The position numbers and the translations under genes are program-made. This document shows, piece after piece, positions 16,408 to 43,770 of a stretch of 64,000 nucleotides of DNA. Position 1 is the first letter of the stretch. Each line of letters starts with the position of its first letter. Source of the stretch: an uncultured Thermoleophilia bacterium (GTDB lineage Bacteria > Actinomycetota > Thermoleophilia > Gaiellales > Gaiellaceae); NCBI GenBank assembly GCA_963838105.1, contig CAWIQC010000002.1, positions 60,069-124,068 of the forward strand, given 5' to 3'. The notes under the pieces were generated by a model that did no database searches, was not told where the DNA came from, and saw only the letters and a list, made by a program, of their open reading frames with translations.

Positions 16408-16428
16408 TGTAGTTGTATATAACAACTA
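16408..16428. promoter_or_regulatory. Perfect palindrome GTAGTTGT-ATATA-ACAACTAC in the divergent HxlR/MFS intergenic region
   Basis: 8-bp arms. Extra ACAACT copies at about 16388 and 16441. AT-rich relative to surroundings. Confidence 0.5.
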
Positions 16429-16458
16429 CGCTTCGTTAAGACAACTAGGAGGCGCAGC

Positions 16459-17640
16459 ATGAGCACGGCATCCGACGACCTGCAGCTGACTTCCGGCGCT
16501 ACCCCGCCGCTCGCCCCGATCCCCGGCGGTGGTGGGCCCTGGCGCTTTTGTGCGGTGCGTTCTTCATGGTGATCCTCGACGCGGCGATCGTGAACGTGGC
16601 GTTGCCGTCGATCCAGCAGGAGCTCGACTTCTCGCGCCAGGGCTTGCAGTGGGTGGTCAGCGCCTACGCTCTGACGTTCGCCGGCCTGCTTCTGCTGGGC
16701 GGCCGAGCGGCCGACCTCCTCGGGCGCCGGCGCATGCTCATGGTCGGTCTGGTTCTGTTCACGCTGGCCTCGCTGCTGTGCGGGTTGGCGTGGTCTGCCG
16801 AGGCGCTGATCGGGGCGCGCGCGCTGCAGGGTGTCGGTGCGGCGATCATGACGCCGACGGCGCTGTCCATCATCACGACGACGTTTCAGGAGGGCTCGGA
16901 GCGCAACAAGGCGCTCGGGATCTGGGGCTCAGCTGGGTGGCATCGGCGCCACAGCGGCGTGGCTGATCGGCGGCCCGCTCGTCGACGGCCCCGGCTGGGG
17001 ATGGATCTTCTTCATCAATGTCCCCCTAGGGATCGGCGCCTTGCTGCTCGTCCCGATGCTCATCCGCGAGAGCCGAGACTCCACAGCTCGGCGGAGTTTC
17101 GACCCTGCTGGCGCTCTGACCGTCAGCGGCGATCGGCTGATCATGGGCCAGGCGATCGTGCTGCGGGTTGGCTTCCGGCCGGTCGCCTCCATCGGGATGG
17201 CGCTGATGATCGGGGGCTGTGCCCTGCTCACCCAGGTCTCCGTGGACGGCACTACTTCGGCGATCTCTTCCCTGCTCTGGGTCGTCTTCGGGGCCGGGGT
17301 GGGCCTCGCCTTCGTGACGGCGACGATCGCGGCGCTCGCAGGAGTTCACGAGCGCGAAGCCGGGCTCGCGTCGGGCCTCAACAACACCGCGTTCCAGATC
17401 GGCGCTGCCCTCGGCACAGCCATCGTGTCGACCGTGCTCGTCTCGAGAAGCGAGGCCTTCATGGCGGCCAATCCTGACGCCGACCCGCTGCTCGGGCTCA
17501 CCGAGGGCTTCCAGTCAGGGTTCGCGGCGGCGATCGTCTTCCCCGCGCTCGGCCTGCTCGTCTCCCTGCTCCTGCTCGGCCGGCCGCCGCGTCCGGCCGA
17601 GCAGCCCTTCGAGGCGGTGCCGGCGCCGGCCAGGGACTGA
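16459..17640 (+). CDS. MFS drug:H+ antiporter (DHA2/EmrB-like), frame breaks and a probable internal deletion
   Basis: RBS AGGAGG plus ATG 16459. FFMVILDAAIVNVALPSIQQELDFS...GGRAADLLGRRRM...ALQGVGAAIMTPTALSII. Shorter than typical 14-TMS members. Confidence 0.75.
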
Positions 17641-25948: not shown

Positions 25949-26166
25949 AGGTTGATTCCACGATCCACGCGCGGCCGGATGCGCCATCTGGCGCGTCTGG
26001 GCCGCTTCCGTTCCTTTCTGAGAGGCCGTGCGGCCTCTCAGACAGGCCCGTGCGCTTCGCGAGGTCGGGGCTTGCCGAGGCGTCCAGCCTCGCCTGCGCC
26101 CCGGCCTCGTGTCCCAGAGCGGCCAGCTGACGCCCCGGCGGAGGCGGATCTCGTGGAATCAACCAT
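25949..26166. mobile_element. MITE copy 1 (218 bp)
   Basis: Terminal inverted repeats (a)ggttgattccacga ... tcgtggaatcaaccat, flanked by CTAG at 25945..25948 and 26167..26170. Internal 11-bp-stem hairpin tctgagaggcc-gtgc-ggcctctcaga. Near-identical to 42656..42874. Confidence 0.85.
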
Positions 26167-26886
26167 CTAGCCGCGCGGCCCGACTCCTCCCGCGGCGCGG
26201 GCGCATTGCATGGAGGGTCGAGCGGATGGGCGCCGAGTGCCTGATGTTCCCGGCCTTCGACCACTGGCGCCGGCGGTCGACGCAGACGACCTGCGTCTCG
26301 ACGGCGGCCGAGACGCCGAGGTGGGCGGCCAGGTTCGCCAGCGTCTGCTCCCAGAAGCGGTCCTCCACCCGGTGCCCGCCGAGAGCGAGCCCGAGCTCTG
26401 TCAGGGGGTCCTGCGCCCGGACGAGCAGCTGCGCCTGAGCCACGGTCTCCCCATCCTCCTCGTGGGCGCTGAACGTGATCCAGCCGGCGAGCATGTGGCC
26501 CTGGGGCGTCATCTCCGTGAACGACACGTCGTCGGCGTGGAGTGTCATCACGCCGGTCGAGAGCTTGAGCCCGGCCGGCCCGGCCGCCTTGATCAGCGCG
26601 ACCTCGCCCGGCTCGATGCCGGTGAGCGGCGGGTAGAACGTGTTTCCTTCCGGCCAGAACTCGGCGAAGTGCTCCTTCCAGACGCGCGATCACCTCGGCC
26701 GGCGTGAGCTGCGAGCCCTCGAGCCGGACGCGGTACGTCTTCTGCCACATCTTCCCGAAGCCCTGGAGCGGGCCGAGCGAGGCGCTTGCCCTCGACGAGG
26801 TTGGCGGCTCCCTCCGGCACGGACTCGACGTGGAGCGTCGAGACCGGCTTCGCCCAGCGCCCCGCGTCGCGCGGTGTCTCGTTCAT
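26159..26886 (-). CDS. Conserved hypothetical protein, last gene of the sensor operon, at least 3 frame breaks
   Basis: RBS GGAGGA plus ATG 26886. MNETPRDAGRWAKPVSTLHVESVPEG.. / GFGKMWQKTYRVRLEGSQLTPAEVI / MTLHADDVSFTEMTPQGHMLAGWITFSAHEEDGETV. Present stop codon lies inside the MITE end. Confidence 0.55.
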
Positions 26887-26901
26887 CGTCTCCTCCTTCG
26901 G

Positions 26902-27252
26902 TCAGGCGACGGCTGCGAGCGCGTCGGCCTCCGAGTCGTAGATTCCGATCGCCTCGTCGAGGCGCGTGAGCTCGAAGATCTGGCGGTAGTGCTCGTTGAG
27001 GCCGAAGGCGAGCAGCTTCTGCTTCGCCCGGTTCGCTCGCACGAGCAGGGTGACCAGCAGTCCGATCCCGCTCGAGTTCATGTACTCGAGCTCGCTGAAG
27101 TTGAGCACGAGCGCGCGCACTTCCTCGCCGCCGGCGCGGGCGTAGGCGTCCATCAGCGCGTCCTCGCTCGCGGCCGTGATCTCGCCGCGCACGTCCACGA
27201 CGCAGGCGCCGTGGCCGGCGTCCCGCACCTCCAGGTTGAGCGTCGTCTGCAT
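26902..27252 (-). CDS. STAS-domain anti-sigma-factor antagonist (RsbV/SpoIIAA-like), copy 2
   Basis: RBS GGAGGA plus ATG 27252. MQTTLNLEVRDAG..VVDVRGEIT...LVLNFSELEYMNSSGIGLLVTLL...GLNEHYRQIFELTRL. Intact. Confidence 0.85.
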   Translation of the reverse strand: MQTTLNLEVRDAGHGACVVDVRGEITAASEDALMDAYARAGGEEVRALVLNFSELEYMNSSGIGLLVTLLVRANRAKQKLLAFGLNEHYRQIFELTRLDEAIGIYDSEADALAAVA

Positions 27253-27265
27253 GTGTCCTCCTTCC

Positions 27266-27600
27266 TCAGCTCGCGTCCTCGTCCGGAATGATCCGGACGA
27301 AGTCCGCGATGCGGGTGATCTCGAAGATCTCGCGGTAGTGGTCGGCGAGGCCTCGGGCCTCGAGCTCGACGCGGTCCCGGCGTCCCTTCGCAAGCAGCCC
27401 GACGAGGAGCGCGATGCCGGTCGAGTTGATGTACCCGACGCGGCTGAAGTCGAGCGTGACGACCCGCGCCCCGTGCCCGTCGCCTCCGCGTAGGCGGCTT
27501 CCAGCGCAGCTTCGGCGCCACCGTCGACGTCGCCCTCGAGCTCGACGACAGCCGCCTCGGCCGCCGGCTGCACGCGCGCCTCAAAGCGACTCGTCTGCAT
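27266..27600 (-). CDS. STAS-domain anti-sigma-factor antagonist, copy 1, one frame break near 27470
   Basis: RBS GAGAGGAGA plus ATG 27600. MQTSRFEARVQP..VVELEGDVD / ARVVTLDFSRVGYINSTGIALLVGLL...GLADHYREIFEITRI. Start overlaps the end of the upstream gene by 20 nt. Confidence 0.75.
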
Positions 27601-30477
27601 CCACGTCTCCTCTCAACCGGAACGCGAGCTCGAGCGTGTGGCTCTCGCCCTCCGTCCAGGTCTCGATGCCGTCAGCCATGTGCTCGATCAGGAACAGGCC
27701 CCAGCCGCGTGGCTTCTGCTCGGCCCTCGAGCTTCGCCTCGAGGTCGGGTCGTTCGGGCTCGACCATCGGGCGCGCTCCGCCGCCGTCCGTGATCCGCAC
27801 GCGGAGCCGCTCGCCGTCGGCGAGCACCTCGATGGCAACAGGCAGCTCGGGCCGTGAGTCGTTGCCGTGCTCGATCGCGTTCATGGCAGCCTCGGAGACG
27901 GCTGTCCGCAGCCGTTCGAGCGTCGTCGCGGGAACGGCGAGCCGCGCGACTGCCGTCGTGACACGCTTCCATGGCCTCCCGCTCGTTGCCGGGCACGCTC
28001 GCCAGCTCGAACGCGGCAAGCACCGTGCCGTTTCCGCCTCGCGGAGGTCGACCGGCTGCGGCGCCCGCTCGAGCGCCACGAGCGTGATGTCGTCCTCCTG
28101 CTCCCAGGCCGAGCCGGTGAAGCGGTCGAGCTCTGCGAGCAGGCCGTCGACCGGTGAGGTCGAGGCGGGCGAGAGCCCCATGAGCTCCCGCAGGCGCGGG
28201 AAGCCGAACATCTCGCCGCCCGGGTCGTGCGCCTCGACGAGGCCGTCCGAGTAGAGGAGCAGGCTCTCGCCGGGCTCGAGCACGGCCTCCTTCTCGTCGT
28301 ACGTCCATCTCCGGCATCAGGCCCAGCGGCATGCCGGTCGCGCGAAGCTCCACGGAGCCGCTCGCCGTGCGCACGCACGGCAGGTTGTGGCCGGCGTTCG
28401 CGTAGCGGAGCACGCCGGTCGACGGCTCGAGAACCGCGAAGAGGCAGGTCACGAACATCTTCGGCGGCATGTCGGGGCACAGCAGGTCGTTCGCTCGGCG
28501 CAAGCACCGCCGCGGGCGAGGCCTGCCGCTGCGACGTAGCCCGCAGGACGCTCCGCGTCGCCGCCATGACCATCGCGGCCGGGACACCCTTGTCGGTCAC
28601 GTCGCCCGACCACGAAGGCCGACCCGGCCGTCCGTCGAGCTCGATGACGTCGTAGAAGTCGCCGCCGACCTCTCGGGCCGGCCGGTAGTGGGCCGAGACC
28701 TGCCAGCCGGCGAGGTCGGGGAGCTCGCGCGGAAGGAAGTTCTGCTGGATGAGCCGGGCGACCTCGAGCTCCTGCTCGATCCGCTCGTGCTCACGCGCCT
28801 GGTATCTCCTGCTCGCGCACGAGCTGGCCGACCCGGAGCGCCGGCGCGGCCTGGGCGGCGAGGTTGTCGAGCAGCCGGCGATCGTCGGTCGAGTAGTCCT
28901 GATCGGAGAGCCGCGGCCCGAGGTTGAGCAGGCCGATCAGCTCGCCCTGGCTGACGAGCGGCACGACGAGCTTCACGCCCGTCGTCGTCAGCGCCGCGAG
29001 CGCAGGCGAGTCGAGCTCGAGGCTGTCGACGTCGATTGCGCCGGAGGCGCTCTCGAAGTACGCGACGAGCGGGTCGTTGGGAGCGATGTCGAGGTCGAGC
29101 GCTCCGGCGGGGCTCGCCGGTGTGTGCGCGGCGAGATCTCTCGCTTCGTCCGGCGGAGGCGCGGGATCCTGCGGCTGCGCTCGACGGAAGATGTGGGACA
29201 AACGCGTCATTGCTCTGCTCCTGTTGTACGGCCGACGCCGTCCGGCGGGCGTTACGGCATCCGTTACGGCGGGACGAAGCCAGAGCGACACCCGCTCGGG
29301 CTCCAGCGTTCGCCGCACGACGGCGGTGAGCTCGCCGTGGAGCGCGGCGATGTCGATCTCGTCGCGCAGCCGGGCGGAGAAGGCCTCGAGCGTGCGCTGG
29401 GCGTCGTAGCGGCGGCGGTAGAAGCGCCGGTCGACCGCTCGCTGAACTCGGGCCCGCACGGGACGGAAGAGCGCGGCGACGGCGAGCGTGGAGACGGCGA
29501 TGGCGAGGTCGGAGCCGCCGCCGAAGGAGGAGAAGACCTCCTGGAGGCCGAGCACGATCCCGAAGTAGGCGCCGACGAGCAGCGCCGAGACCGCGCCGTA
29601 GACGACTGCCCGGTTGACGATCCGGTCGATCTCGTAGAGGCGGTAGCGGAGGATGGCGATCCCGGCCGAGACCGGGATCGTGGCGATGGCCAGGAGCAGG
29701 AGCGGCTCCCAGACGGCGCCGTCGTCGATGTACCAGAAGAGGAGCGGGCCGCTCGCAAAGGCGGCGCCCACGAGGCCGGCGGCGCTCGCGACCCACTTGA
29801 GCTGCTGGCGCTCGAGCCCTGTCGCCCGGCGGAAGCGGAGGACGAGCGAGGTTGCCGAGACGAGAATGCCGACGAACATGAGGATGGAGGCGATGTTCGC
29901 GACGATCTCCAGCGCGTCCGCGAGCGCGCCTCCGGCTGCGTACGGGTTCTGTCAGAGGCTCGAAGTCCTCGAGCGTGTGGGGGCTGAACATCTCTCCGAG
30001 CAGAGCGAGCACGATGGCGCCGACGACGATCCAGACGACCGGCACCCAGCGCCGCGACAGCAGTCGACCCTCGGGGAAGAGGAGGAAGAGCAGCGTCGCG
30101 GCGAGGAACAGCGGTGGCAGAAGGAGCCACGACCCCAGCCAGGCCATCGTCTCGCCGGCCGGAAGGGAGCCGGGCTCGGTCAGCAGCGCGTAGAGGGCGT
30201 ACTGGTTGGCGAAAGCGGCGAGCGCGAACAGGCTTCCCAGGCCGACGAAGATCCAGCCGATCGGGTTCTCGGGGCGGCGAGAGGCGATGAGGGCGCCGAC
30301 GGTCGGAAAGCCAGGACGACGATCCCGAACAGGGCATCGCCGAGCGTGACGATCCGAAGTTGCTCGACGCCCGGCGTCGAGCGGTTGAGGATCAGGAATG
30401 CGAGCGCGGCGAACGTCAGCGCGATGGCGATCGCGCAAACCGCCCAGGCGAGACGGGTCGTGCCACTGCCGGCTCAT
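27581..30477 (-). CDS. Array paralog A: polytopic membrane module plus conserved juxtamembrane segment, fused to GAF-like, PP2C (SpoIIE/RsbU-type) phosphatase and RsbW-type HATPase kinase domains; many frame breaks
   Basis: - Membrane module: [85 protein letters not shown].
- GAF-like: VVPLVSQGELIGLLNLG.
- PP2C: GDFYDV..GDVTDKGVPAAMVMA..YANAGHN..LLLYSDGLVEA..DDITLVAL.
- Kinase: AAMNAIEHGN...GWGLFLI. Confidence 0.8.
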
Positions 30478-31705
30478 CGCTGCACCTTCGGTCCTCGGAG
30501 CCAGAGCGACACCTGAGCGGGCTCCAGCGTTCGCCCCACCACGGCGGTGAGCTCGCCCTGGAGCGCCGCGATGTCGACCTCGTCGCGGAGGCGGGCGGCA
30601 GAAGGCCTCGAGCGTGCGCTGCGCGTCGTAGCGGCGGCGGTAGAAGCGCCGGTCGACAGCTCGCTGGACTCGGGCCCGCACGGGACGGAAGAGCGCGGCG
30701 ACGGCGAGCGTGGAGACGGCGATGGCCAGGTCCGAGCCTCCGCCGAACGACGAGAACACCTCCTGGAGGCCGAGCACGATCCCGAAGTAGGCGCCGGCGA
30801 GGAGCGCAGAGACCGCGCCGTAGACGACCGCCCGGTTGACGATCCGGTCGAGCTCGTAGAGGCGGTAGCGGAGGATGGCGATCCCGGCCGCGATGGGGAT
30901 GGTGGCGACTGAGAGCAGCAGAACCGGCTCCCAGGGCCCGTCGTCGATCCACCAGAAGAGCGAGCGGGCCGCTGGCCCATGCCACGGCCACCAAGCCCGC
31001 GGCGCTCGCGACCCACTTGAGCTGCTGCCGCTCGAGGCCCGTCGAGCGGCGAAACCGCAGGATCAGCGAGATGGCCGACGCGATAAGGCTTGCGAGCATC
31101 AGCACGAACGCCACGTTCGCGACGATCTCGAGGGCGTCGGCAGCCGCACCTGCGACTGCGTACGGGTTCTCGATCGACTCGAAGCCCTCGAGCGGGCCGG
31201 GCAAGAACATCTCCGCGAGCAGGGCCAGCACGATCCCGCCCCCGGCGGCCCAGAGGACCGGCAGCCAGCGCCGCGAGAGAAGTGGCCGTTGGGGAAGAGG
31301 AGGAAGACCAGGGTTCCGCTCAGGATGAGCGGAGCCAGGAAGAGCCAGGACTGCAGCCAGGCCATCGCCATGCCCGCGGGCAGCGACCCCGGCTCGGTGA
31401 CGAGCGCGTAGGAGGCGTACTCGTTCGCGAAGGCCGAGATCGCGAACATCGCTCCGAGGCTGACGAAGATCCAGCCGATCGGGTTCCCCGGACGGCGGGA
31501 GGCGACGAGCGCCCCGACGGTCGAGAACGTGAGCAGAGCGACGACGAAGAAGACGGTCGCGACCTGCGATCCGATCGTGCTCATCCCCCTCTCATCGGGG
31601 CTCGAGCGGTTGAGAACGAGCGAACGCGAGAGCGGCTAACGTCAGGGCGAAGGACGAGCGCCGCAGACCCCCCAGGCAAGGCGTGTCGTCGGCGGGCCGG
31701 CTCAT
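30474..31705 (-). CDS. Array paralog B: membrane module plus juxtamembrane segment, no output domain; frame breaks
   Basis: MSRPADD.., [75 protein letters not shown]-stop. TGA overlaps the ATG of paralog A (ATGA at 30474..30477). Confidence 0.7.
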
Positions 31706-32947
31706 CGGCTCGCCTCCTGCGTCTCGGAGCCAGAGCGAGACCTGAGCGGGCTCCAGCGTTCGCCCCACGACGGCGGTGAGCTCGCCCTGGAGCGCGGCGA
31801 GGTCGATCTCGTCGCGGAGGCGGGCGGTGAAGGCCTCGAGCGTGCGCTGGGCGTCGTAGCGGCGGCGGTAGAAGCGCCGGTCGACCGCCCGCTGGACTCG
31901 GGACCGCACGGGCCGGAAGAGCGCCGCGACGGCGAGCGTGGAGACGGCGATGGCGAGGTCGGAGCCGCCGCCGAAGGACGAGAACACCTCCTGGAGGCCG
32001 AGCACGATTCCGAAGTAGGCGCCGGCGAGGAGCGCGGTCACCGCGCCGTAGACGAGGGCCCGGTTGACGATGCGATCGATGTCGTAGAGGCGGTAGCGGA
32101 GGATCGCGAGCCCGGTCGCCAGCCGGGATGGTGCCGAGCGCGACGAGGCCGAACCGGCATCGGGGGGCCCGTCGAAGCTCGTGCGAGAAGGCGAGCGGCC
32201 GATCGTTCAGCGGCACGATGACGAGCAAGCGCGCGGCGACCGAGGCGAGACCCACTTGATCTGCTGCCGCTGCTCGCGGTTCGCGAGGCGAAACCGCAGG
32301 AACGAGCGAGGTCACCGAGGCGATCAGGAGCACGACCAGGCGTGTCAGGCCGAAGCCACGTCGGCGACGAATCTCGAGGACGCCGGCACGCCGACCTGGG
32401 GTTCGTCGAGGTGCTCGAGCGGCTACCTCGAGCGGGCCCGCCCGGAACGTGAACGAGAGCGGGCGCCAGCACGATCAGCCACGGCGGCCGCGAAGTAGCG
32501 ACGGACGCCAGCGCGCCGACGAGAAGACGGCCGTCGGGAAACAGGAGGACGATCACCGCCATGACGCCCGAGGACGAGCGGATCCAGGTCCAGCCAGGAC
32601 GAGCCAGAGCGACGCCACGCGCCGCCGGCAGCGAGCCCGCGCTCGGTCGCGAGCTCGGCGTAGCCGCCGGACACGTTCGCGAAGCCCGAGATCGAGGACG
32701 CCGCGCCAGGCGAGAAGAACCAGCCGATCGGGTTCTCCGGGCGCCGGGAGGCGACGAGCGCGCCCACGGTCGCGAAAACGCTGAGGATAGCGACCCAGGA
32801 CGACGACAGCCCGACCTGCGATCCGAGTCGGCATCCGAGCCCGTTCCGGTGCTCGAGCCGTAGAACGACGAGACCAGGCCGGCTGAGATCAGCCGAGGAC
32901 GCCGACCCAGGCGCCCCAGGCGAGGCGGTGGCCGTGCGGCTGCTCAC
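31702..32947 (-). CDS. Array paralog C: same family, the most heavily frame-broken copy
   Basis: GTG 32947 overlaps the stop of the cyclase gene (GTGA). [45 protein letters not shown] (from DNA), [25 protein letters not shown]. Expected ATGA junction with B is out of frame here. Confidence 0.55.
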
Positions 32948-34285
32948 CGCTCCACCTCGGCGGCGAAGAGCTGACGCTCGCCCTGCACGCCCTTGAGCTC
33001 ACGGGTGCGAGGGTCTTCGAAGCGGACCCCGGAGCCGGCCACGAGCTCGCGGACGGTGCTCGAGACGAGGATCTCGCCGGCGCCGGCCATCTCGGCGACC
33101 CGCGCTCCGATGTGCACCGCGATGCCGCCCAGGTCGTCGCCGTGGAGCTCGCACTCACCTGCGTGGACACCCGCGCGGAGCTCGAGACCGAGCGGCCGGA
33201 CGCCGTCGCGAACGGCGGCGGCGCAGCGGATCGCCTGCGTCGGGCTGTCGAAGGCTGCGAAGAAGCCGTCGCCTGTCGTCCGGAGCTCGCGACCGCGGAA
33301 GCGATCGAGCTCCCTTCGCACCAGCTCGTTGTGGCGCTCGAGCAGCTCCTTCCAGCGACTGTCGCCGAGCCTCGTCACGTGCTCCGTCGAGCCGACGATG
33401 TCGGTGAAGAGCAGGGTCGTCAGCACCCGCTCGGGCTCGGGAGCGGTCCGGCGCGCACCGGTCACGAGCTCCTCGACCTCGCCGACGAGCGTCTCCGCGT
33501 CGCCGGCGAACGGCCAGTGGTCGTCGCCGGGAAGCTCGACGAGTCGCGCGCCGTGGATGTGATCGGCCAGATAGCGGGAGTGACCGACGTCGACGAACCG
33601 GTCGCCCCTCCGGTGGAGGACGAGCGTGGGCGCCCGGAGCCCGTCGAGCCGGTCGCGCACGTCGAGCTCGGTGTTCATCCGCATGAGCGAGACCGCGCGC
33701 CCGGGGCTCGCTCCGAGCCGCAGGAGCCGGGCGAACCAGCTCCGGTAGGCCTCGTCGTCTGCCAGGCTCGGCGCGAGAAGCGCGGCGCCGTCGCGCGGTG
33801 CCCCAGCCCTCCTCGGTCGCCGAAAGGTAGAGCTGGATCGCCGCCGGCGACCAGCCGAGGTCGTAGCCGTCGCCCTGGGTGAACTTCGCCAGGCCGGCGT
33901 AGAGGGCGAGCGCCGCGACGCGCTCGGGGTGCTCGGCGGCGAAGAGCGCGGCCAGCGCAGCGCCGTCGAACACGCCGAGGAGAGCGGCGCGCTCCGAGCC
34001 GGCGGCGTCGAGCACCGCGCCGATGTCGTCGATCCGCGCCTCCGGGGTCGGGAGGCCGTCCACGGGGTCGGACATGCCGGTGCCGCGCTTGTCGAACACG
34101 ATCAGGCGCGAGAAGGCCGCGAGCCGGCGCAGGAAGCGGGCGGACGCCGGCAGCTCCCAGCTCCATTCGGCGTGCGACAGGAAGCCCGGCACGAGCATCA
34201 GGTCGACCGGGCCCTCGCCCACGACCTGGTACGCGATCGTGACCTCGCCGCTGCGGGCGTAGCGCGTGTCGACCTGTGGCGTCAT
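32944..34285 (-). CDS. alpha/beta-hydrolase fused to a class III adenylate/guanylate cyclase domain, at least 1 frame break
   Basis: MTPQVDTRYARSGEVTIAYQVVGEGPVDLMLVPGF...FDKRGTGMSD...GVFDGAALA; then LLFTDIVGSTEH...RTTGDGFFAAF...RAGVHAGECE...GIAVHIGARV. ATGA overlap with upstream paralog E. Confidence 0.8.
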
Positions 34286-35484
34286 GTCGCACGCTCCCGG
34301 AGCCAGACCGATACGTGCGCCGGCCGCATCGTCTCGTCGACGGTGGCGGCGAGCTTCGTCTCGAGCGCGGCGAGCTCGACCTCCTCGCGCACGTGGCTCG
34401 CGAATGCCTCGAGGGTGCGCTGGGCGTCGTACTTGCGCCGGTAGAAGCGGCGATCGACGAGGGCCTGGATGCGGCCCCGGACCGGACGGAAGAGCGCGAA
34501 CGCGATGAGCGTCGACGCCGCGATCGCGAGATCGCCGCCTCCGGCGAACGACGAGAACACCTGCTGGAAGAGTAGGACGATCGCGAGGTAGAGGCCGGCG
34601 AGGGCCACGGTCGCCGTGCCGTAGACGAGCGTGCGGCGGATGATCAGGTCGATGTCGTAGAGGCGGTACCGCAGGATCGCGAGGGCGGTCGCGATGGGGA
34701 TGCCCACGAGCAGGGCGAACAGCGTGGCGGCCCAGAGGACGTCCCCGGCCAGCTCCCAGTCCACTGCCGCGAACGGGAGGACCAGGGCGATCGGGGTCGG
34801 CAACGACAAGGGCGAGCCACTTGAGCTGTTGGCGCTCGACTCCTCTGGCGCGCCGGAAGCGAAGCGCGAGCGAGAGAACTGCCGCCGCGAGGCTCGCGAC
34901 GAGCAAGCGCTGCGCCGGCCAGCCGCAGTCGCTTCCAGCAGGCCGGCCGCGTCGACGCCGAGCGGGTTTGGCGAACCCCCCGTAGAGAGGGTCGGGGTGC
35001 AGGCCTTCACCCAGGATCGAGAGCACGATCGCGCCCGCAGCCAGCCAGATGGCGAGGCGCCAGCGAGGCGTGAGCGGCCGGCCGTCAGGGAAGAGGAGCG
35101 AGGAAGATCGCGCTGAGCGCGAACGCGGGCCAGGTGCTCCACTCGTAGAACCACGCGAGCCACTGCGGCGCGGGCACCGCGTCGGGCCGCACGGCGGCGA
35201 TCTCGCCGCCGATCTCGACGATGCCGTTCGAAGGCCCAGACGAGCGACGTGCAGCACATGACCCAGCCGACGGCGTTCTCGGGCCGGCGAGCGGCGACGA
35301 GCGCGCCGGTCGTCGCGAACACGGCGAGCCCGAGGTCACCGAGAATCGTGAGCCAGAGCGGCTCGATGTCAGCCTCCTCCGCCGCAGACGCGCCGTAGAC
35401 GGCGAGAGCGATCCCGAGCCCGGTGAGGGCGAGGTACAGGGCCCAGAGGGACCAGGCGAGGCGGGTTGTTGTGCGCGTGCTCAC
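34282..35484 (-). CDS. Array paralog E: membrane module plus juxtamembrane segment, no output domain; frame breaks
   Basis: GTG 35484 (GTGA overlap with F). [93 protein letters not shown]-stop. Confidence 0.7.
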   Translation of the reverse strand: MSTRTTTRLAWSLWALYLALTGLGIALAVYGASAAEEADIEPLWLTILGDLGLAVFATTGALVAARRPENAVGWVMCCTSLVWAFERHRRDRRRDRRRAARRGARAAVARVVLRVEHLARVRAQRDLPRSSSLTAGRSRLAGASPSGWLRARSCSRSWVKACTPTLSTGGSPNPLGVDAAGLLEATAAGRRSACSSRASRRQFSRSRFASGAPEESSANSSSGSPLSLPTPIALVLPFAAVDWELAGDVLWAATLFALLVGIPIATALAILRYRLYDIDLIIRRTLVYGTATVALAGLYLAIVLLFQQVFSSFAGGGDLAIAASTLIAFALFRPVRGRIQALVDRRFYRRKYDAQRTLEAFASHVREEVELAALETKLAATVDETMRPAHVSVWLRERAT

Positions 35485-36651
35485 GTTCGTATGTCGGGCG
35501 ACCGTAACCAGAGCGAGACCTGTGCGGGCTGCAACGTCTCCTGCACGACGCCGCGGAGCTCCTCGCCGAGCGCGTCGAGGTCGATCTCGTCGCGCAGGCT
35601 GGCGGAGAAGCTCTCGAGGGTTCGCTGAGCATCGTAGCGACGGCGATAGAACCGCCGGTCCACCAACTGCTGGATGCGTCGTCGGGCCGGGCCGAACAGC
35701 GCGGCGACCGCGAGCGTCGAGACGGCGACGGCGAGGTCGGAGCCGCCCGCGAACGACGAGAACACCTTCTGCAGGGCGAGCACGATCCCGAAGTAGAGGC
35801 CGGCCAGAGCTACCGTGGCGACGCCGTAGACGAGGGTTCGCTTGAGGACGAGATCGAGGTCGTACAGCCGGTAGCGGAAGATCGCGATGCCTGCCGCGAT
35901 CGGCAGACTCGAGAGTCCCAGAGCTCCGAGCACGGACAGCACCTCGCCCGAGTCGATGAGGAAGAACGAGGCGATGAAGATCGGTGCCGCCGCGAGGAAC
36001 CAGCGGAGCTGCTGCCGCTCGTCCGCCCCTGCAGAGCGATATCGGACGAACACGGACACTACTGCGAGCAACAGCGCGAGCATTGTCCCGAGCCACGCCC
36101 AGTCGCCGCCGGAAAACAACGGGAACTCGATCTCGATGGGCTTGTCTGCCCCGGTAACGCTCGAGAGCGTGCCCGGCCCGAGGGCGGTTCCCAGCCCCAT
36201 CACGAACAGCGAGGCAGCGGCGAGCCAGGCGACGGGACGGAATCGTGGGGAGGTCAATTCCCCGGTCGGAAACAGCAGGAGGAGAAACGTTCCGAGCGCG
36301 AGCGCGGCGACAGGAGCCAGATCTGCCGCCAACCCTGCCCAGGAGCCGCCCGGCAGCGAGCCCGGCGACTCTCGAAGTGCGTAGATCGCGTATTCCTGGC
36401 AGAACAGCGCGATCTGAATTCCGAGTCCCAGCCGCGAGGAAGATCCAGCCGACCCGGTTCCCGAACCGGCGTGACACGATCAAGGCGCCGACGGCCGAGT
36501 AGGCGAGGATCGAGACGATGAGGGCCGGGTCGGTCGCCCGCGGGAGGTCGGAGACCTCGAGTGAGCGCGTGGGCACCCACAGCGCGAGCCCCGCGGCGGC
36601 GAACGCGACGGAGAGCCCGAAGAGCGACCAGGCTACGCGGCCGCTCGTCAC
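35481..36651 (-). CDS. Array paralog F: membrane module plus juxtamembrane segment, no output domain; one or two frame breaks
   Basis: GTG 36651 (GTGA overlap with G). [97 protein letters not shown]-stop. Confidence 0.75.
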
Positions 36652-37902
36652 CGCTTCTCCTGAGCAGGACGAAGCCAGAGCGAGACGTCGGAGGGTTGCA
36701 TGGTGTCGCGAACGACGGTACGTAGCTCGGTGCCGAGCGCGTCGAGGTCGACCTCGTCGCGGAGGCGGGCGGAGAAGGTCTCGAGCGTGCGCTGGGCGTC
36801 GTAGCGGCGGCGGTAGAAGCGCCGGTCGACGGCGTGCTGGACGCGCCGGCGCGCGGGCCCGAACAGCGCCGCGACGGCGAGCGTCGAGACGGCGACGGCG
36901 AGGTCGGAGCCGCCGGCGAACGACGAGAAGACCTGCTGCAGGGCGAGCACGATCCCGAAGTAGAGGCCGGCCAGGCCGGCGGTCGAGGACGCCGTAGACG
37001 AGCGTCCGGCGGATGATCACGTCGATGTCGTAGAGGCGATACCTGAAGATCGCGATGCCGATGGCGAGCGGGAGAGCCACGAGGCCGGCGACCAACGGCG
37101 CCGCGCCGATCCAAGACTCCCCGTTCGTGGCCGAGAGCGTGATGAATCCAGCTGCGAGGAGGGTGGCCGCGTAGGCGAACCACTTGAGCTGCTGGCGCTC
37201 GTCTCCCCTGGCACGGTGAAGGCGAAGCACGAACGAGCTCGCCGAGGCGAGGATGCTGACGACGAGCAGCGTCCAGCCGGTGGAGCCCTTCGAGCGACGT
37301 CGAAGAACCGTCCGGCGCGGTCGATCCCGAACGGATTCTCGATCGAGGTGATGTCATCGAAGCCGCCCAGCGGGCCCGGGCGAGAACGAGCCCAGGAAGA
37401 GGGCGACGAGGGAGCCCGCTGCGAGCCACGCGACGGGTCGCCAGCGCCGCGAGGGCAACCGACCGTCCGGGAAGAGGAGGAGGAGGAACGCTGCGGTGAT
37501 ACCCAGTCCGACGTAAGGCGTCCACGACCAGAGCCAACCCAACGCCTGACCTGCTGGCAGCGAGCCGGGGTTTGTGAAGATGGCGTAGATCGCGTAGCCC
37601 TGGGCGAAGCCGGAGATGGCAAAAGCACCCCCGGCGGCAATGAGGATCCAGCCGATCGCATTGCCGGTCTGGCGCGTGGCGATGAGGGCTCCGACGGCCG
37701 AGAAAGGAAGGAAGACGAGTGCGAAGAGCGCCTCGTCGTGCGCCTCCTCGCCGTCCGGGAGCGGCGTCGAGAGGTTGAGGGCCAGAAACGCGAGGCTGAG
37801 CGCGGTGAGCACGAGCGAGAGCCCGGCGAGCCCGAGGGCCACCCGGACCCAGATCGTGGTAGCCCCCGGTCTTCCCATGCGAATCGGCCGGCTCCTAGCC
37901 AC
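36648..37902 (-). CDS. Array paralog G: membrane module plus juxtamembrane segment, no output domain; frame breaks
   Basis: [113 protein letters not shown]-stop. Start is GTG 37902 or ATG 37878. Confidence 0.75.
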
Positions 37903-38358
37903 AGCTACGGCTCAGTCTGTCGAACCGCCAAGCTCGGACGGCCACGAGCTGAGCGATCAGGACGATGGCCAGCGCATTGACGACGTGCAGGGCAGACAAC
38001 GTCGGCACGTTGTCCTGCGCGAGGACGAGCAGGCCCTGGACGATCGTCAGGCCCGTGAGCAGCGCAGATGGCCAGAGGATCCCGCGACCCATTCGCCAGC
38101 GAGCGCCGTGAGCAGGATGAGCGCGGCGATGAACGTGAGCACGCTGCCGAGAATCCGGTGGGCGCCGAAGCTCTGCCCATCGAAGACGGCTAGGCCTGCG
38201 AGCAAGAACTGGGTGACCAGCCCCGCGAGGAACGCGACGACGAAGATCCAATGAAGGGTCCGGGCTGCGCGTCGCTGGGGCCTCCAGTGGAATCGTCGCC
38301 TCGTTGTTCGCGGCGACGAACCGAGCTTTGCCACGGGGCTGGTGCGAAGATCGCTCAC
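37895..38358 (-). CDS. Small polytopic membrane protein (possibly DUF6220-like), one frame break near 38060
   Basis: GTG 38358 overlaps the stop of paralog H (GTGA). [35 protein letters not shown]... / ...[24 protein letters not shown]. Family assignment is from memory only. Confidence 0.5.
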
Positions 38359-39590
38359 CGACCGCTCCTGAGCCAGAGCGAGACGTGTGCCGGCTGCATC
38401 GTCTCCTCGACGACGCCGGTCGAGCTCATCTCGCAGCGCGTGCAGGTCGATCTCGTTGCGCAGGCTGGCGGAGAAGCTCTCGAGCGTGCGCTGGGCGTCG
38501 TAGCGGCGCCGGTAGAAGCGGCGGTCCACCGCGGTTTGAATTCGTCGCCGCGCCGGCCCGAACAGTGCGGCGACGGCGAGGGTCGAGACGGCGACGGCGA
38601 GGTCGGAGCCGCCGGCGAACGACGAGAACACCTGCTGCAGGGCGAGCACGATGCCGAAGTAGAGGCCCGCCAGCGCGGCGGTCGCGACGCCGTAGACGAG
38701 CGTCCGGCGGATGATCACGTCGATCTCGTAGAGGCGGTACCTGAGGATCGCGAAGCTGGCGGCGATCGGGATCGCGGTGAGCGCAGCGACCGCCAGCGCG
38801 CCAGGACCAGCTCCTCGAAAACGGCCGACCCCGTGTCCTCGGACGAAGCCCTCCTACCAAGAAGACGACGGCGAAGAACACGCCGTGCTCGCCACCCACT
38901 TGAGCTGCTGACGCTCGACGGCTCCCGAGCGCCGGAAGCGCACGACGAGCGCCGCCGCGGCGATCGCGAGGCTCGGGAGAAGAATGAACCAGCCGGCCAC
39001 TGCGGCGTTCCCGAGCACCTCGGGCGCTCCCTCGATGCGGAGCGGGTTCTCGACGTGCTCGAACGGCTCCGTGAGCGTCTCCGGCGCGAGAACGCCGACG
39101 CAGAAGCGCGAGGAGACCGACGGCCTGGAGCCACACGAGAGGCCGCCAGCGGCGCGAGGGAGGCCTTCCCGTCGGGAACAGCAGCAGGATCAGCACCCCC
39201 GCGAAGAAGGCCACGGCCCAGATGTTGGCGCCGACGAATGCCGCGTACGCGCCTCCGGGAAGGGAGCCGCGGTTCCGCGACGAGCGCGTGGTGGCCGTAC
39301 GCCGTGGCGAACACCGCGACGGCGAGGACGACGCCGACGACGCAGAAGAGCCAGCCGATGGGGTTTCCGGGTCGTCGCCTCGCGATCGATCGATGCCGAC
39401 GGCCGGCGAACGCGACTGGCCGGGATGAGGACGACGGCGTCGTCCCAGCGATCGTCGATATGCGCCGAGCGGCGAGCGTGCCCGCCGAGCCAAGGCGAGC
39501 GAGAGCCGCAGAGGGCACCCAGGCGAACGGCGCGCTCAGGTGGGCAAGAGCCGCGTCGCGGCGATCAACGGATTCTCCGCCAACGCGCAC
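38355..39590 (-). CDS. Array paralog H (first gene of the operon): membrane module plus juxtamembrane segment, no output domain; frame breaks
   Basis: [94 protein letters not shown]-stop. Start GTG 39590 is approximate. Confidence 0.7.
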
Positions 39591-39657
39591 GCGTCGCGCC
39601 AGTCCAAGGCTCGACGACGTCCCATGGTCGGAGCGTGCAGCGGCGCCGTTCCGGGTC

Positions 39658-39697: not shown

Positions 39698-42481
39698 GTG
39701 AGCAGCTTGACGATCTCGCTCCTCGGGCCGCCGCGGATCGAGGTGGACGGCCTGCCGTTACGCGTCGACACGCGCAAGGCGGTGGCGCTGCTGGCCTACC
39801 TGGCGGTCACCGGCCGGCCGGCTCGGCGCGAGCTGCTCGCCGATCTGCTCTGGCCCGAGTACGAGCCGGCCAACGGGCGTGCGGCGTTACGCCGCACCTT
39901 GTCGGTGCTTCGCGCCGCCCTGGGCGCCCGCTGGCTCTCGGCATCCCGCGACATCGTGAGCCTCGATGAGCACGGCGTCGACCTGGATGTCGATCGCTTC
40001 CGCCGGTTGCTCGTCGAGGGCCGGGCGCACGAGGCGGTCGTGCTCTACCGCGGCGACTTCCTCGAGGGGTTCGACCTACGCGACAGCGCGGAGTTCGATC
40101 ACTGGCAGATCGCCGAGGCTCAGGCGCTGCGCCGCGAGCTCGGCGCCGGCCTCGAACAGGTGGCGCTCGAGCGGGCCGAGGCCGGAGATCTCGAGGCGGC
40201 GATCGTGCACGCGCGCCGGCGCCTCGAGCTCGATCCGCTCGCCGAGTCGGGCCATCGCCTGCTGATGCAGCTGTATGCGTGGGCAGGCGATCGTGCCGCC
40301 GCGATCGAGCAGTACCGGGCCTGCGTCCGCGCGCTGCATCGCGAGCTCGGCGTCGCCCCGCTCGCCGAGACGACCGAGCTCTACGAGCAGGTCAGCGCCG
40401 GCAAGATCGTCCAGCCGGCCCCGCGGCCGCCGGCAGCGGCGACGCCTGTGCACGCTCCGGTCGCGCTCCCGCTCGTCGACCGCGACGCCGAGCTCGCGAG
40501 CCTGATCTCGGCCTGGCAGGGCGCCGCGCCCGACGGCCGCCTCATCGTGATCGAGGGCGAGGCCGGCATCGGCAAGACGCGGCTCGCCGACGAGCTCGCG
40601 GCTCGGGCCGGCGCCGCTGGAGCGGTGACTGTCGTCGTGCGCGCGGCCGAAGCGGAGGCGGAGCTTCCGTACGCCGCCGTGCTCGACGCGATGCGACAGC
40701 TCAGCGATCGGCCGGACGCTGCGCAGCGAATTGCGACGGTCCCAGCCCTGATCGCAGCGGAGGCCGCACGCCTCGCGCCGGAGGTGGCAGACCTGCGCCC
40801 GGGCCTGCCACCGGCGCCGCCGACGGACAGCCCCGGAGCGGGCAGCCGCTTCCTGGGCGCGCTCGCGGACGTCCTCACGGCCTGCAGCGCCGGCAGCGCG
40901 CCCGGGCTTCTCGTCGTGGACGACGCTCAGTGGGTCGATGCCGCGTCGCTCGAGGTGCTGAGCTTCCTGGTCCGCCGCCTCGAGGGCCGCGCGCTCTGCA
41001 TCCTGCTGTCGTGGCGAGCCGAGGAGCTGCCGCCGGGCCACGCACTCCGCGAGCTGCTGGCAGACGCGCGGCGCTCGAGACGCGGGCTCCTCGTGGCTCC
41101 GAGACGCCTCGGTCGCGCGGCCGTAACGGAGCTGGCACGGGCAGCGGGCGCCGTATCGGAGATCGATCGGCTCTACGCCCAGACCGCCGGCCTGCCCCTC
41201 TTCGTCGTCGAGTACCTCGCGGCTCTCGGCGAGACGGCAGGTGGCGACGTGCCGGAGGGCGTGGCCGAGCTCCTGCGTCACCGTGCGGCGGCGGCGAGCG
41301 AGGGCGCTCGCCAGGTGCTCGCGGCAGCCGCGGCGCTCGGGACCTCCTTCGACCTGGAGGCGATCCGCGAGACGAGCGGGCGCAGCGACGAGGAGACCGT
41401 GGCCGCCCTCGAGGAGCTCGAAGCGCGAGGGCTGCTCAGCGAGGACGGCGAGAGCTACGCGTTCGCGCACGACTCGATGCGGTCCGTGATCTACGCCGAC
41501 ACGAGCCTCGCTCGGAGGCGCTTGCTCCACCGGCGTGCCGCTGAGGCGCTCGCCGCGAGGCCGCCGCGCGACCGCGTCGAGCGTGCGGCGGTCATCGCCG
41601 AGCAGTACCGGCTGGCAGGACGAGATGCCGACGCGGCCGAGTATCACCGCCTGGCAGGTGAGCGGGCCCGAGAGCTGCTGGCGCCCTCGGAGGCGCTCGC
41701 CCACTTCCGGGCTGCGCTCGCGCTCGGCCACGCGGACGAGGCCATCCTGCACGAGGCAGTCGGCGAGCTGCTCATGCTCATGGGCGAGTACGGGCCGGCG
41801 CTCACGAGCCTCGAAGCGGCCGCCGCTCTGGCGACCGATCGAGCACAGCTCGGCCGGATCGAGCACGAGCTCGGCGCCGTTCGTCATCGGCAGGGTGAGT
41901 GGGAGCTCGCCGCAGCACGCTACGAGGCCGCCGCGGCCGCGCTCGAAGGCAACGAGGGGCAGCTCGCGCGCATAGAGGCCGACCGCAGCCTCAACGAGCA
42001 CCGGAGGGGTCGTGGCGAGGCCGCCGCTGCACTGGCGCACAGGGCGCTCGAGCTCGCGGAGCGGGCCGGGGACACCGCAGCGCTCGCGCAGGCGCACAAC
42101 ATCCTCGGCATCCTGGCCTCGAGCGGCGGCGCGCTCGACGAGGCCCGCACGGAGCTCCGCCAGAGCCTGGAGCTCGCCGGCGCGCTCGGCGACCCCGGTG
42201 CGCGCGTGGCGGCGCTGAACAACCTCGCGCTCCTCGAGCGAACGGAGGGGGATCTCGCCGAGGCGCTGCGGCTCACGCGGGAGGCCCTTGCGTTGTGCGT
42301 GGCCCAGGGCGATCGTCATCGCGAGGCGGCGCTGCACAACAACCTCGCGGATCTCCTGCACGCAGCCGGCGACCCTGACGCTGCGATGGCGGAGCTCAAG
42401 CAGGCCGTGGCGATCTTCGCAGAGATCGGCGGCGACGCCGGCGAGGCTCAGGTCGAGATCTGGAAGCTCGTCGAATGGTGA
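39698..42481 (+). CDS. AfsR/SARP-family regulator: OmpR-type winged helix plus BTAD, P-loop NTPase, C-terminal TPR repeats
   Basis: SLLGPPRIEVDGLPL...RKAVALLAYLA...LYRGDFLEGF...HRLLMQLYAWAGDRAAAIEQY...GEAGIGKTRL...LLVVDDAQWVD, then many TPR-like repeats. Uninterrupted over 2.8 kb. The supplied ORF start at 38984 is an upstream artefact. Confidence 0.9.
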   Translation: MSSLTISLLGPPRIEVDGLPLRVDTRKAVALLAYLAVTGRPARRELLADLLWPEYEPANGRAALRRTLSVLRAALGARWLSASRDIVSLDEHGVDLDVDRFRRLLVEGRAHEAVVLYRGDFLEGFDLRDSAEFDHWQIAEAQALRRELGAGLEQVALERAEAGDLEAAIVHARRRLELDPLAESGHRLLMQLYAWAGDRAAAIEQYRACVRALHRELGVAPLAETTELYEQVSAGKIVQPAPRPPAAATPVHAPVALPLVDRDAELASLISAWQGAAPDGRLIVIEGEAGIGKTRLADELAARAGAAGAVTVVVRAAEAEAELPYAAVLDAMRQLSDRPDAAQRIATVPALIAAEAARLAPEVADLRPGLPPAPPTDSPGAGSRFLGALADVLTACSAGSAPGLLVVDDAQWVDAASLEVLSFLVRRLEGRALCILLSWRAEELPPGHALRELLADARRSRRGLLVAPRRLGRAAVTELARAAGAVSEIDRLYAQTAGLPLFVVEYLAALGETAGGDVPEGVAELLRHRAAAASEGARQVLAAAAALGTSFDLEAIRETSGRSDEETVAALEELEARGLLSEDGESYAFAHDSMRSVIYADTSLARRRLLHRRAAEALAARPPRDRVERAAVIAEQYRLAGRDADAAEYHRLAGERARELLAPSEALAHFRAALALGHADEAILHEAVGELLMLMGEYGPALTSLEAAAALATDRAQLGRIEHELGAVRHRQGEWELAAARYEAAAAALEGNEGQLARIEADRSLNEHRRGRGEAAAALAHRALELAERAGDTAALAQAHNILGILASSGGALDEARTELRQSLELAGALGDPGARVAALNNLALLERTEGDLAEALRLTREALALCVAQGDRHREAALHNNLADLLHAAGDPDAAMAELKQAVAIFAEIGGDAGEAQVEIWKLVEW

Positions 42482-42874: not shown

Positions 42875-42918
42875 CAAGAGGGTTTGACGCCGTCCGCTCG
42901 GCGCGCTACCCTCAGATA

Positions 42919-42932
42919 CGAACATACGTTCG
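42919..42932. promoter_or_regulatory. LexA operator (Cheo/SOS box) CGAACATACGTTCG
   Basis: Perfect GAAC-N4-GTTC palindrome 18 nt upstream of the lexA start. Confidence 0.8.
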
Positions 42933-42949
42933 CGACCCACGGAGGGGCC

Positions 42950-43576
42950 ATGGTTTCGGAGCGCCAGCAGGAGATCTACGACTTCATCGTCGTCTACGCG
43001 CGCAAGCACGGCTACCCCCCGACCGTGCGGGAGATCGGCGCGCGCGTCGGTCTGGCGTCCCCGTCGACCGTGCACGTCCATCTGGCGAAGCTCGAGCAGG
43101 CCGGGTACGTGCGCCGCGACCCGACGAAGCCACGCGCGCTCGAGCTGGTCGGCCGCGGGGAAGATCCGGCGCCGGAGAACGGCCGTGTCGTCCCGCTGCT
43201 GCCGCTGGTGGGTGAGATCGCCGCGGGCTCGCCATTGCTCGCCGAGGAGAACGTCGAGGAATACGTCGCCGTGCCGGAGCCGCTCGCGCGGGGAGAGGAC
43301 GAGTTCCTCCTGCGCGTGCGCGGCGACAGCATGATCCAGGCCGGGATCATGTCCGGTGACTACGTCGTCATCCGGCGCCAGCAGGCGGCCGCGAACGGCG
43401 ACGTGGTGGCGGCGCTCGTGGGCGAGGACGAGTCGGCGTCCGAGGCGACGGTGAAGACGTACTACCACGAGGACGGCCGCATCCGTCTGCAGCCGGAGAA
43501 CGACGAGCTCGAGCCTCTGTACCCCCAGCACGTCCAGATCCTGGGAAAGGTCGTGGGGCTCTTCCGTCGGCTATGA
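42950..43576 (+). CDS. lexA: LexA repressor
   Basis: RBS GGAGGGG plus ATG 42950. YPPTVREIG...LASPSTVHVHL..LE..GY, cleavage-site region VGEIAAGSP, VRGDSMI..GI..GD, VKTY. Intact. Confidence 0.95.
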   Translation: MVSERQQEIYDFIVVYARKHGYPPTVREIGARVGLASPSTVHVHLAKLEQAGYVRRDPTKPRALELVGRGEDPAPENGRVVPLLPLVGEIAAGSPLLAEENVEEYVAVPEPLARGEDEFLLRVRGDSMIQAGIMSGDYVVIRRQQAAANGDVVAALVGEDESASEATVKTYYHEDGRIRLQPENDELEPLYPQHVQILGKVVGLFRRL

Positions 43577-43770
43577 CCGTGGCTTCCCTCACCCGGACGC
43601 TGGACGAGGCTCTGCTCGCGCTGCTCCAGGGCGAGACGGACGCATGCCTCGTGTGCGGCGAGCCGGTCGAGGGCGAAGAGGAGCGCGTCGAGTGCTCCGC
43701 CTGCGGGTCGGTGCTCGAGCCGGCGCCGAGGGAGGTGATTCCCGGGCAGATGACGTTGATCGACGGCTGA
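43573..43770 (+). CDS. Small zinc-ribbon-like protein
   Basis: ATGA overlap with lexA. CLVCGEP...CSACGS (two CxxC pairs). 65 aa. Confidence 0.5.
   Translation: MTVASLTRTLDEALLALLQGETDACLVCGEPVEGEEERVECSACGSVLEPAPREVIPGQMTLIDG

Follow-up and report, generated by a model that had tools for sequence, protein, structure and literature searches.

The window analysed here (64,000 nucleotides with a G+C content of ~70%, positions 60,069 to 124,068 of contig CAWIQC010000002.1, assembly GCA_963838105.1, from an uncultured Thermoleophilia bacterium) carries, at ~29.2-39.6 kb, an array of seven paralogous genes coding for membrane proteins, all on the minus strand and followed by the gene of a putative partner-switching phosphatase-kinase. 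The array, its family and its possible link with this phosphatase-kinase are described below. None of the seven copies is a single intact open reading frame (ORF), and 1 to more than 10 frame corrections were needed in each. The proteins were reconstructed with a purpose-written frameshift-tolerant DNA-to-protein aligner, guided by intact database homologs, and are 389-422 amino acids (aa) long. A motif scan of the window found RYRLY, DRRFYRR and VS[LV]WLR seven times each, in identical order in every copy, and the seven reconstructed proteins align end to end with all nine motifs listed in an earlier note on this DNA, whose claim of seven paralogs with motifs in a shared order is thereby borne out. 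Degenerate single motifs are one 10-residue variant in c2, one 10-residue variant and ERQQLRW in c3, and DAVPAP in place of GSLPxG in c4.

The copies, c1 to c7, correspond to the letters H, G, F, E, C, B and A of the earlier note; the letter D of that series is an alpha/beta-hydrolase and nucleotide-cyclase gene at 34285-32944. All are on the minus strand, and the conserved segment, running from RYRLY to WLR, is given for each. Copy c1 (39590-38355, segment 38742-38367, stop TGA 38357-38355) is a stand-alone membrane protein of ~390 aa with an uncertain start and at least six robust frame changes in its alignment to the database protein P0065. Copy c2 (37878-36648, segment 37044-36669, ~410 aa) ends with a TGA stop overlapping the GTG start of c3 (GTGA). 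The cleanest copy is c3 (36651-35481, segment 35876-35502, 389 aa), with one frameshift, 93% identity to the intact 389-aa protein P0001 and a GTGA overlap with c4. The latter (35484-34282, segment 34671-34297, ~400 aa) has the most divergent tail of the seven, and an ATGA joins its stop to the start of the cyclase gene. On the other side of that gene, c5 (32947-31702, segment 32098-31724) is the most disrupted copy, with at least 11 frame changes and a presumed TGA at 31704-31702 that is out of the raw frame; it is absent from the related loci L001-L004. Copy c6 (31705-30474, segment 30870-30495, ~405 aa) shares an ATGA overlap with c7 (30477-29207, segment 29648-29274), which is a 422-aa stand-alone protein once an extra C is removed and shows 94% identity from end to end to P0122, also of 422 aa, the tail PAVTDAVTPAGRRGRTTGA(E/Q)Q included. 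A stop 3-7 residues past WLR had been described for six copies: it is present in the raw sequence of c1, c2, c3, c4 and c6 (3-6 residues), but not in that of c5, where the first stop of the raw frame comes 46 codons past WLR and the TGA that would be expected to overlap the ATG of c6 is present but shifted by one frame. As a whole, neighbouring genes of the array share 4-base start/stop overlaps (GTGA or ATGA), a usual sign of translational coupling in one operon.

Downstream of c7, the gene at 29210-27584 (minus strand) codes for a 539-aa protein with GAF, SpoIIE/PP2C and HATPase_c_2 domains, i.e. a phosphatase and an RsbW-type kinase, behind a GAF domain without its first helix and strand; its ortholog P0160 scores 177.8 bits for SpoIIE and 75.3 bits for HATPase_c_2 in Pfam. 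Two genes of the anti-sigma-antagonist STAS type follow on the same strand (27600-27266 and 27252-26902, 95% identity to the products of L002), their orthologs matching Pfam STAS and STAS_2. The components of a partner-switching module, namely SpoIIE/PP2C and HATPase_c_2 domains with adjacent STAS genes, are thus all found. In the RsbU/RsbW/RsbV partner switching of the Bacillus sigma-B system and its actinobacterial relatives, a PP2C phosphatase, an HATPase_c_2 kinase and a STAS antagonist act together; the locus resembles this system in having SpoIIE/PP2C and HATPase_c_2 on one chain together with two STAS proteins. At this locus of the window, the analysis identified neither a sigma factor gene nor another target gene of such a module. 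The hydrolase-cyclase gene inside the array (446 aa, minus strand, class III cyclase) has 4-nucleotide overlaps on both sides, and its orthologs match Pfam Abhydrolase_1 and Guanylate_cyc.

In related genomes (56-97% identity) the gene order is a BTAD/AAA/TPR regulator, paralogs, the hydrolase-cyclase, more paralogs, the GAF-SpoIIE-HATPase_c_2 gene, two STAS genes, a 238-aa protein and a FAD amine oxidase. The core group, made up of the family gene, GAF-SpoIIE-HATPase_c_2 and two STAS genes, reaches Kribbella, Nocardioides, Limnocylindria and Chloroflexia, whereas the cyclase is limited to Thermoleophilia-like loci (8 of the 48 loci of at least 10 kb) and is kept in L005, which lacks the phosphatase gene. 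Two or more copies of the family gene are present in 32 of these 48 loci, a SpoIIE gene in 29 and a STAS gene in 25. The membrane module also occurs in natural fusions: a GAF-PAS-SpoIIE form of ~915 aa in dozens of independent assemblies of Rubrobacter, a GAF-SpoIIE form (P0387) and a GAF-HisKA_3-HATPase_c form (P0332).

Identity among the seven copies averages 75% (range 61-94%) over the ~125 aa from RYRLY to WLR vs. 37% (range 26-67%) over the N-terminal ~290 aa up to RYRLY. This segment had been regarded as a purely cytoplasmic stalk, a view that has to be abandoned, as it contains two transmembrane (TM) helices: among ten hydrophobic stretches of the hydropathy profile the last two (peaks 2.12 and 1.63) lie within it as TM9 and TM10, and the AlphaFold2 model of the natural fusion P0136, built on a 120-sequence alignment, has ten long helices (per-residue confidence score, pLDDT, mostly >90 over residues 1-280), RYRLY being placed at the end of helix 8 and followed by helices 288-323 and 328-358 and the short helices 364-378 and 381-395. 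The segment is made up of the cytoplasmic end of TM8 (RYRLYDID), the nearly invariant TM9-TM10 hairpin and a ~65-aa tail, which consists of a 19-residue helix motif, a 14-residue helix motif and the ~30 aa of DLxALxxELxxVVxxTxxPxxVSLWLR. The predicted protein crosses the membrane ten times and has its N- and C-terminus in the cytoplasm.

Regional conservation was expressed as consensus frequency across 105 stand-alone homologs, laid out on this predicted topology. It is lowest in TM1-8 (0.34-0.48) and in outside loops 1-4 (0.17-0.64), reaches 0.70-0.78 in the four cytoplasmic loops, 0.79 in TM9, 0.92 in TM10 and 0.82-0.83 in the tail helices, and is 0.91 in the final VSLWLR strand. The four conserved cytoplasmic loops are Arg-rich: RRPxNPIGW, LFPDGRxxSRRWRP, RFRRxxGxERQQLKW and a fourth 13-residue motif, which is part of the segment. 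The opposition of variable loops and TM helices to a constant inner part, drawn in the earlier note from the seven copies, therefore holds family-wide, and the constant part is the whole cytoplasmic face, together with the membrane hairpin and the tail.

An exhaustive profile search recovered 43,740 representative clusters (50% identity) at an E-value of at most 1e-3, 12,461 of them at 1e-30 or better, and nearly all of the 150 best have lengths of 380-440 aa and stop no more than ~15 residues from the end of the profile. The family was found in Thermoleophilia, Rubrobacteria, Nocardioidaceae/Kribbella, Acidimicrobiia and Chloroflexota. Scans of its members against Pfam and NCBIfam gave no model that covers it, RefSeq names the Kribbella members WP_130385352.1, which has a 545-aa protein encoded downstream of it, and WP_130385351.1 'hypothetical protein', and literature searches found nothing on it, HisKA_7TM alone being mentioned, as a sensor domain.

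Concerning known families, the recurrent weak matches are to sensor-kinase membrane modules only, namely those of PrsK (TIGR02916) and HisKA_7TM (PF16927). The model of PrsK, the XrtA/PEP-CTERM histidine kinase, is matched at about positions 183-347 by 55 of the 109 members (best E-value 6e-8), and the matched stretch takes in the last membrane helices and the juxtamembrane tail; in PrsK, a GAF domain comes after this tail. What the two share is the layout, with GAF placed directly behind a membrane module of several helices. The scores, however, are 16-35 bits vs. a cut-off of 300 and are confined to model positions ~130-355, so that the family falls outside PrsK; its first eight helices are unmatched, and the stand-alone members, without HisKA or HATPase domains, end after the first GAF helix and strand. 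Among the weak Pfam matches, HisKA_7TM is the commonest (8 of the 109 members at an E-value of at most 0.01, best 2.7e-7): in P0179, residues 128-280 align to profile positions 72-222 with 27.1 bits, below the gathering threshold of 28.6, as are all the matches examined, and no hit was obtained for P0122, P0001 or the window fragments. These scores indicate remote similarity only. The family has ten helices and not seven, and is mostly stand-alone. HisKA_7TM itself is the N-terminal 7TM sensor part of histidine kinases. A sensor role in kinases of archaea and bacteria is described for it in PMC5847659.

Scans of the members with MASE, 5TMR-LYT, MHYT and Cache models gave no match. MASE-type domains follow the same concept, being a membrane-embedded sensory module that recurs with varied cytoplasmic outputs; the present family differs in that the form without an output domain is by far its dominant architecture.

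Given this setting, we consider, with a probability of about 60%, that the stand-alone paralogs are interchangeable membrane input modules for the partner-switching phosphatase-kinase. The divergent membrane proteins would represent alternative sensory inputs, each using the cytoplasmic face and tail that they have in common to dock onto the one soluble phosphatase-kinase. Perhaps they also dock onto the hydrolase-cyclase, which could be a second output partner. Docking onto the phosphatase-kinase would then set the phosphorylation state of the STAS proteins, while gene conversion, for which evidence is given below, would prevent the tails from diverging and so preserve the fit of every paralog to the same partner. 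The signalling role suggested previously draws support from the natural fusions and from the conserved order with the GAF-SpoIIE-HATPase_c_2 and STAS genes, whereas the docking and the role as sensory input are inferred. The proposed arrangement departs from RsbU/RsbW/RsbV in that the input would come from separate 10-TM proteins and not from an RsbU domain, a stressosome, a PAS or a response-regulator domain, and in that the GAF domain of the phosphatase lacks N-terminal elements here.

Those elements may be contributed by the membrane proteins. In the natural fusions, the Pfam models GAF and GAF_3 align from profile position 1 at 'DLDAL…', the GAF match extending over residues 380-511 in P0136, 396-527 in P0215 and 371-491 in P0387 (profile positions 3-133), and the family profile covers the first ~29 aa of this GAF stretch in P0387 (match up to residue 399). 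The C-terminal ~30 residues of the stand-alone proteins would accordingly be equivalent to GAF profile positions ~1-35, as judged from these fusions, in which positions 1-132 of the profile are aligned. Conversely, in the soluble protein P0160 and its Kribbella ortholog, GAF models match only from profile position 50-91 on (starts at 52, 76 or 91 in P0160), the N-terminal helix and first strand not being present in the GAF domain of the downstream phosphatase-kinase. When the fused and the separate GAF regions were compared with hhalign, positions 46-151 of the former were aligned with positions 31-136 of the latter (probability 100%), and the first 45 fused-GAF positions, with alpha-1, beta-1 and part of the linker, were left without a counterpart in the separate proteins. 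Searched against PDB sequences, the profile of the fused GAF region gave weak matches to the C-terminal half of GAF domains only (E-value 0.04 or worse), in which fused position 74 stands opposite residue 70 of a 149-residue GAF, which fits a domain start at 'DLDAL'. This spacing agrees with a GAF of full length without being proof of it. As for the stand-alone proteins P0122 and P0001, none of the GAF models PF01590, PF13185 and PF13492 gave a hit, and neither polypeptide carries a complete GAF fold of ~130-150 aa. Because fused GAF domains start at 'DLDAL' and soluble ones lack that part, the last ~30 aa of each stand-alone protein are assigned, on the basis of these profile alignments, to GAF helix alpha-1 and strand beta-1.

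In its most specific form, the proposal is that one GAF domain is split over two chains, the membrane paralog giving alpha-1 and beta-1 and the soluble SpoIIE-HATPase_c_2 protein giving the rest; we hold this tentatively, as a possible but doubtful refinement. A complete GAF would then exist only in the complex, any divergent sensor could plug into one phosphatase-kinase, and a tail completing the GAF of its partner in trans would explain why conversion has kept the tails uniform. The soluble GAF-SpoIIE proteins start with a motif of their own, M-T-x-L-[ST]-x-x-F-R-R (window 29210-29175; L006-L081), after which come a variable Ala/Pro-rich linker of 25-45 aa and a conserved 'PVDIAPNDP'. This motif, conserved from Thermoleophilia to Kribbella and Chloroflexia, is probably functional and, in the split-GAF version, may be involved in the same docking or in an exchange of strands. 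That MTxLSxxFRR is a homolog of the beta-1 strand VSLWLR was considered and set aside as speculation, as hhalign does not align the two.

Several observations weigh against the proposal, in its general or its split-GAF form. In the AlphaFold2 models of P0136 and of P0121, the read-through of the window used as a single-chain stand-in for the complex (mean pLDDT 69), the GAF region is unfolded, with pLDDT <50 and no strands, and adding the tail to the GAF match raises its score only from 31.2 to 35.4 bits. No GAF-SpoIIE gene lies within 6 kb in ~40% of the sampled loci, nor within 10 kb of the L005 array, which has 8-9 copies and the cyclase; with many loci in this situation, the tail must have a role that needs no adjacent partner. 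The locus sample itself is biased, as the ranking query included the GAF part. Finally, the topology, with both termini inside the cell, is deduced from the hydropathy profile, from the positive-inside rule and from the position of cytoplasmic domains that other lineages have fused to the C-terminus.

The proteins might also have nothing to do with signalling, and be transporters, lipid- or cell-wall-modifying enzymes or scaffolds, lying next to the phosphatase-kinase by coincidence or because regulation runs the opposite way. In favour of this are the conserved and charged loops between ten TM helices, the many loci without a GAF-SpoIIE gene, the weak, chance-level hits to Acyl_transf_3 and UbiA and the few 'MFS family permease' labels in JGI annotations. 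Yet no transporter or enzyme family is matched above threshold by Pfam (Acyl_transf_3 12-15 bits vs. a cut-off of 31, UbiA 21-23 vs. 34), and Foldseek found no relative of the P0136 model in the PDB with an E-value <0.01 (best 0.011), its top matches being generic 7TM bundles (G-protein-coupled receptors, bacteriorhodopsin) with TM-scores of 0.14-0.46. The weak matches that do recur are those to histidine-kinase sensor modules, and the module is repeatedly found N-terminal to GAF/PAS/PP2C or kinase outputs, so that a function outside signalling appears unlikely. The labels in question are carried by P0018, P0032, P0047 and P0163; no MFS model matches any tested member, and they are probably an annotation error.

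Another possibility is that the segment is conserved by concerted evolution alone and has no special function. Exchange between copies is indicated by two observations: identity at four-fold degenerate sites is 0.66 in the segment vs. 0.47 upstream (0.41 expected by chance), and in 60-nucleotide windows the nucleotide identity steps abruptly at about nucleotide 840 (RYRLY), from 0.5-0.65 to 0.9-0.98. This step is seen within the groups c1-c2-c3 and c5-c6-c7, c4 standing apart. The clearest mosaic is c5 vs. c6, with 0.53 upstream and 0.93 in the segment; over its 3' 360 nucleotides, c5 is 0.92-0.95 identical to c6, compared with 0.5-0.65 in the 5' part. Nevertheless, the same segment is the most conserved one in 105 homologs across classes and phyla, beyond the reach of conversion, with ~37% of its columns at least 90% conserved vs. 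~6% upstream (homologs of several classes and two phyla), and it is conserved in PrsK-type kinases too. Concerted evolution as the only cause is thus quite improbable. Gene conversion of the 3' ends is nonetheless called for, because four-fold sites are more alike in the 3' part and identity rises abruptly at RYRLY, and the likeness of the tails is attributed to this process and to family-wide constraint acting together. The earlier explanation of the contrast, as constraint on a signalling stalk, stands in so far as the constraint is family-wide, and has to be amended in that selection is not its sole cause.

The earlier note had further described copy A (c7) as a membrane sensor continuing into the GAF-PP2C-kinase, from which it would follow that c7 is a full-length sensor and the other six are truncated derivatives sharing its stalk. 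It is true that the raw frame of c7 stays open past WLR and on into the GAF gene, that this read-through is in the databases as P0121, and that genuine fusions are known in Rubrobacter. The continuity, however, depends on one extra C at 29233-29235 (near 29234, minus strand, GGCGT[C]GGCCG), which puts c7 in frame with the GAF-SpoIIE gene. In a five-way DNA alignment this base occurs in the window only and is absent from L001-L004, and the aligner sets a +1 shift at 29233. Without it, c7 stops 21 codons past WLR (…PAVTDAVTPAGRRGRTTGAQQ, then stop), its TGA (29209-29207) overlapping the ATG of the next gene. The databases hold, from several independent assemblies, a separate 422-aa membrane protein (P0122 and P0123, 93-95% identity to c7) and a separate 539-aa GAF-SpoIIE-HATPase_c_2 protein (P0160, P0157 and P0164), and one JGI contig carries both P0122 and P0160. 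In a wider sample, the family gene stops 1-26 codons past WLR in 30 of the 31 loci with an adjacent GAF-SpoIIE gene; these 30 two-gene loci include isolate genomes of Kribbella and Nocardioides, and a true fusion was found at one Rubrobacter locus only. Similar one-nucleotide insertions affect every gene of the window. A real fusion in c7 is therefore very unlikely, and, as it needs the extra C and 30 of 31 loci have two genes, we take all seven copies to be stand-alone and the apparent fusion to be a sequencing-type insertion and not biology. Read-through in frameshifted assemblies seems to have given rise to long database entries such as P0135, P0151 and P0478. A single inserted base can create domain fusions in uncorrected long-read assemblies, and any reading of the window based on ORFs or fusions calls for frame correction first.

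As to the frame breaks in general, the codon-position G+C signal changes frame every few hundred bases, and the motifs of one copy are split over frames. The closest relative found, L001 (91-97% DNA identity), has intact c3 orthologs, and compared with it the c2-c3 region of the window has five single-base insertions, located exactly where the aligner had inferred frameshifts. The neighbouring genes share this pattern: ten +1 shifts over 1.6 kb in the GAF-SpoIIE-HATPase_c_2 gene (94% protein identity to the intact ortholog P0160), one frameshift in the cyclase gene (98% to the L002 product) and one in the first STAS gene (95% to the intact ortholog). In related contigs of the same long-read project, from soil metagenome bins of Thermoleophilia, the same genes are broken at other places. 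Because the neighbours share the pattern and related contigs break elsewhere, the frame breaks are read, from these sequence comparisons, as assembly-type indel errors and not as decay. An array of decaying pseudogenes with real frameshift mutations, to which the 1 to more than 10 disruptions per copy and the state of c5, the most damaged copy, without a close ortholog and missing from L001-L004, might point, is highly improbable, since almost all disruptions are single-base insertions that affect the cyclase, phosphatase-kinase and STAS genes equally (94-98% protein identity), the reconstructions needed no in-frame stops and related contigs break the same genes elsewhere. Over 26900-39600, and probably over the whole window, almost every gene is broken by single-base insertions, not only in long homopolymers.

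With all seven copies taken as stand-alone proteins feeding, in the preferred reading, a common phosphatase-kinase, the system is of a known kind, a module for membrane sensing, akin to those of PrsK and HisKA_7TM kinases, that feeds a partner-switching module. The new features are three: a very large family, still unnamed, in which forms lacking an output domain dominate; a gene boundary that lies inside a GAF domain; and multi-copy arrays with homogenised tails. The ~44,000 clusters (50% identity), from soil Actinomycetota and Chloroflexota and often in arrays of 2-9 copies, are now tied to GAF-PP2C partner switching by gene order, translational coupling and natural fusions, which gives the family a testable role. 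The arrangement suggests a way in which many signals sensed at the membrane could converge on a single switch in the cytoplasm and, if true, a GAF domain completed across two chains would represent a novel type of sensor-output wiring.

The number of paralogs between the cyclase and the GAF-SpoIIE genes varies: three in the window, two in the four closest contigs, L001 (at 14592-17087) and L002-L004, and three or four in the more distant L005-L007. For the N-terminal part of c5, no close ortholog was found in L005-L007. A reconstruction of c5 guided by the first post-cyclase gene of L003 was rejected, the tail being misaligned and the gene not being an ortholog of c5. The extra copy relative to L001-L004 could reflect copy-number variation, loss in the L001-L004 lineage or assembly collapse.

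Between c1 and c2, at ~37900-38340 on the minus strand, lies a small hydrophobic ORF with a frame change, whose equivalent in L002 is a 156-aa DUF6220 protein. Upstream of the array, synteny with L001, L005 and L006 places a putative large BTAD/AAA_16/TPR regulator (40076-42361, minus strand) and, at ~42900-43600, a putative LexA-like protein (LexA_DNA_bind and Peptidase_S24), this pairing being kept across related loci. Downstream of the STAS genes (~26160-26890; 8944-9744 in L008), a conserved protein of ~238-266 aa without a Pfam hit carries the motif GFGKMWQKTY... and is also found in Kribbella. In Thermoleophilia-like loci it is followed by a FAD amine-oxidase-type gene, and both may belong to the same regulon.

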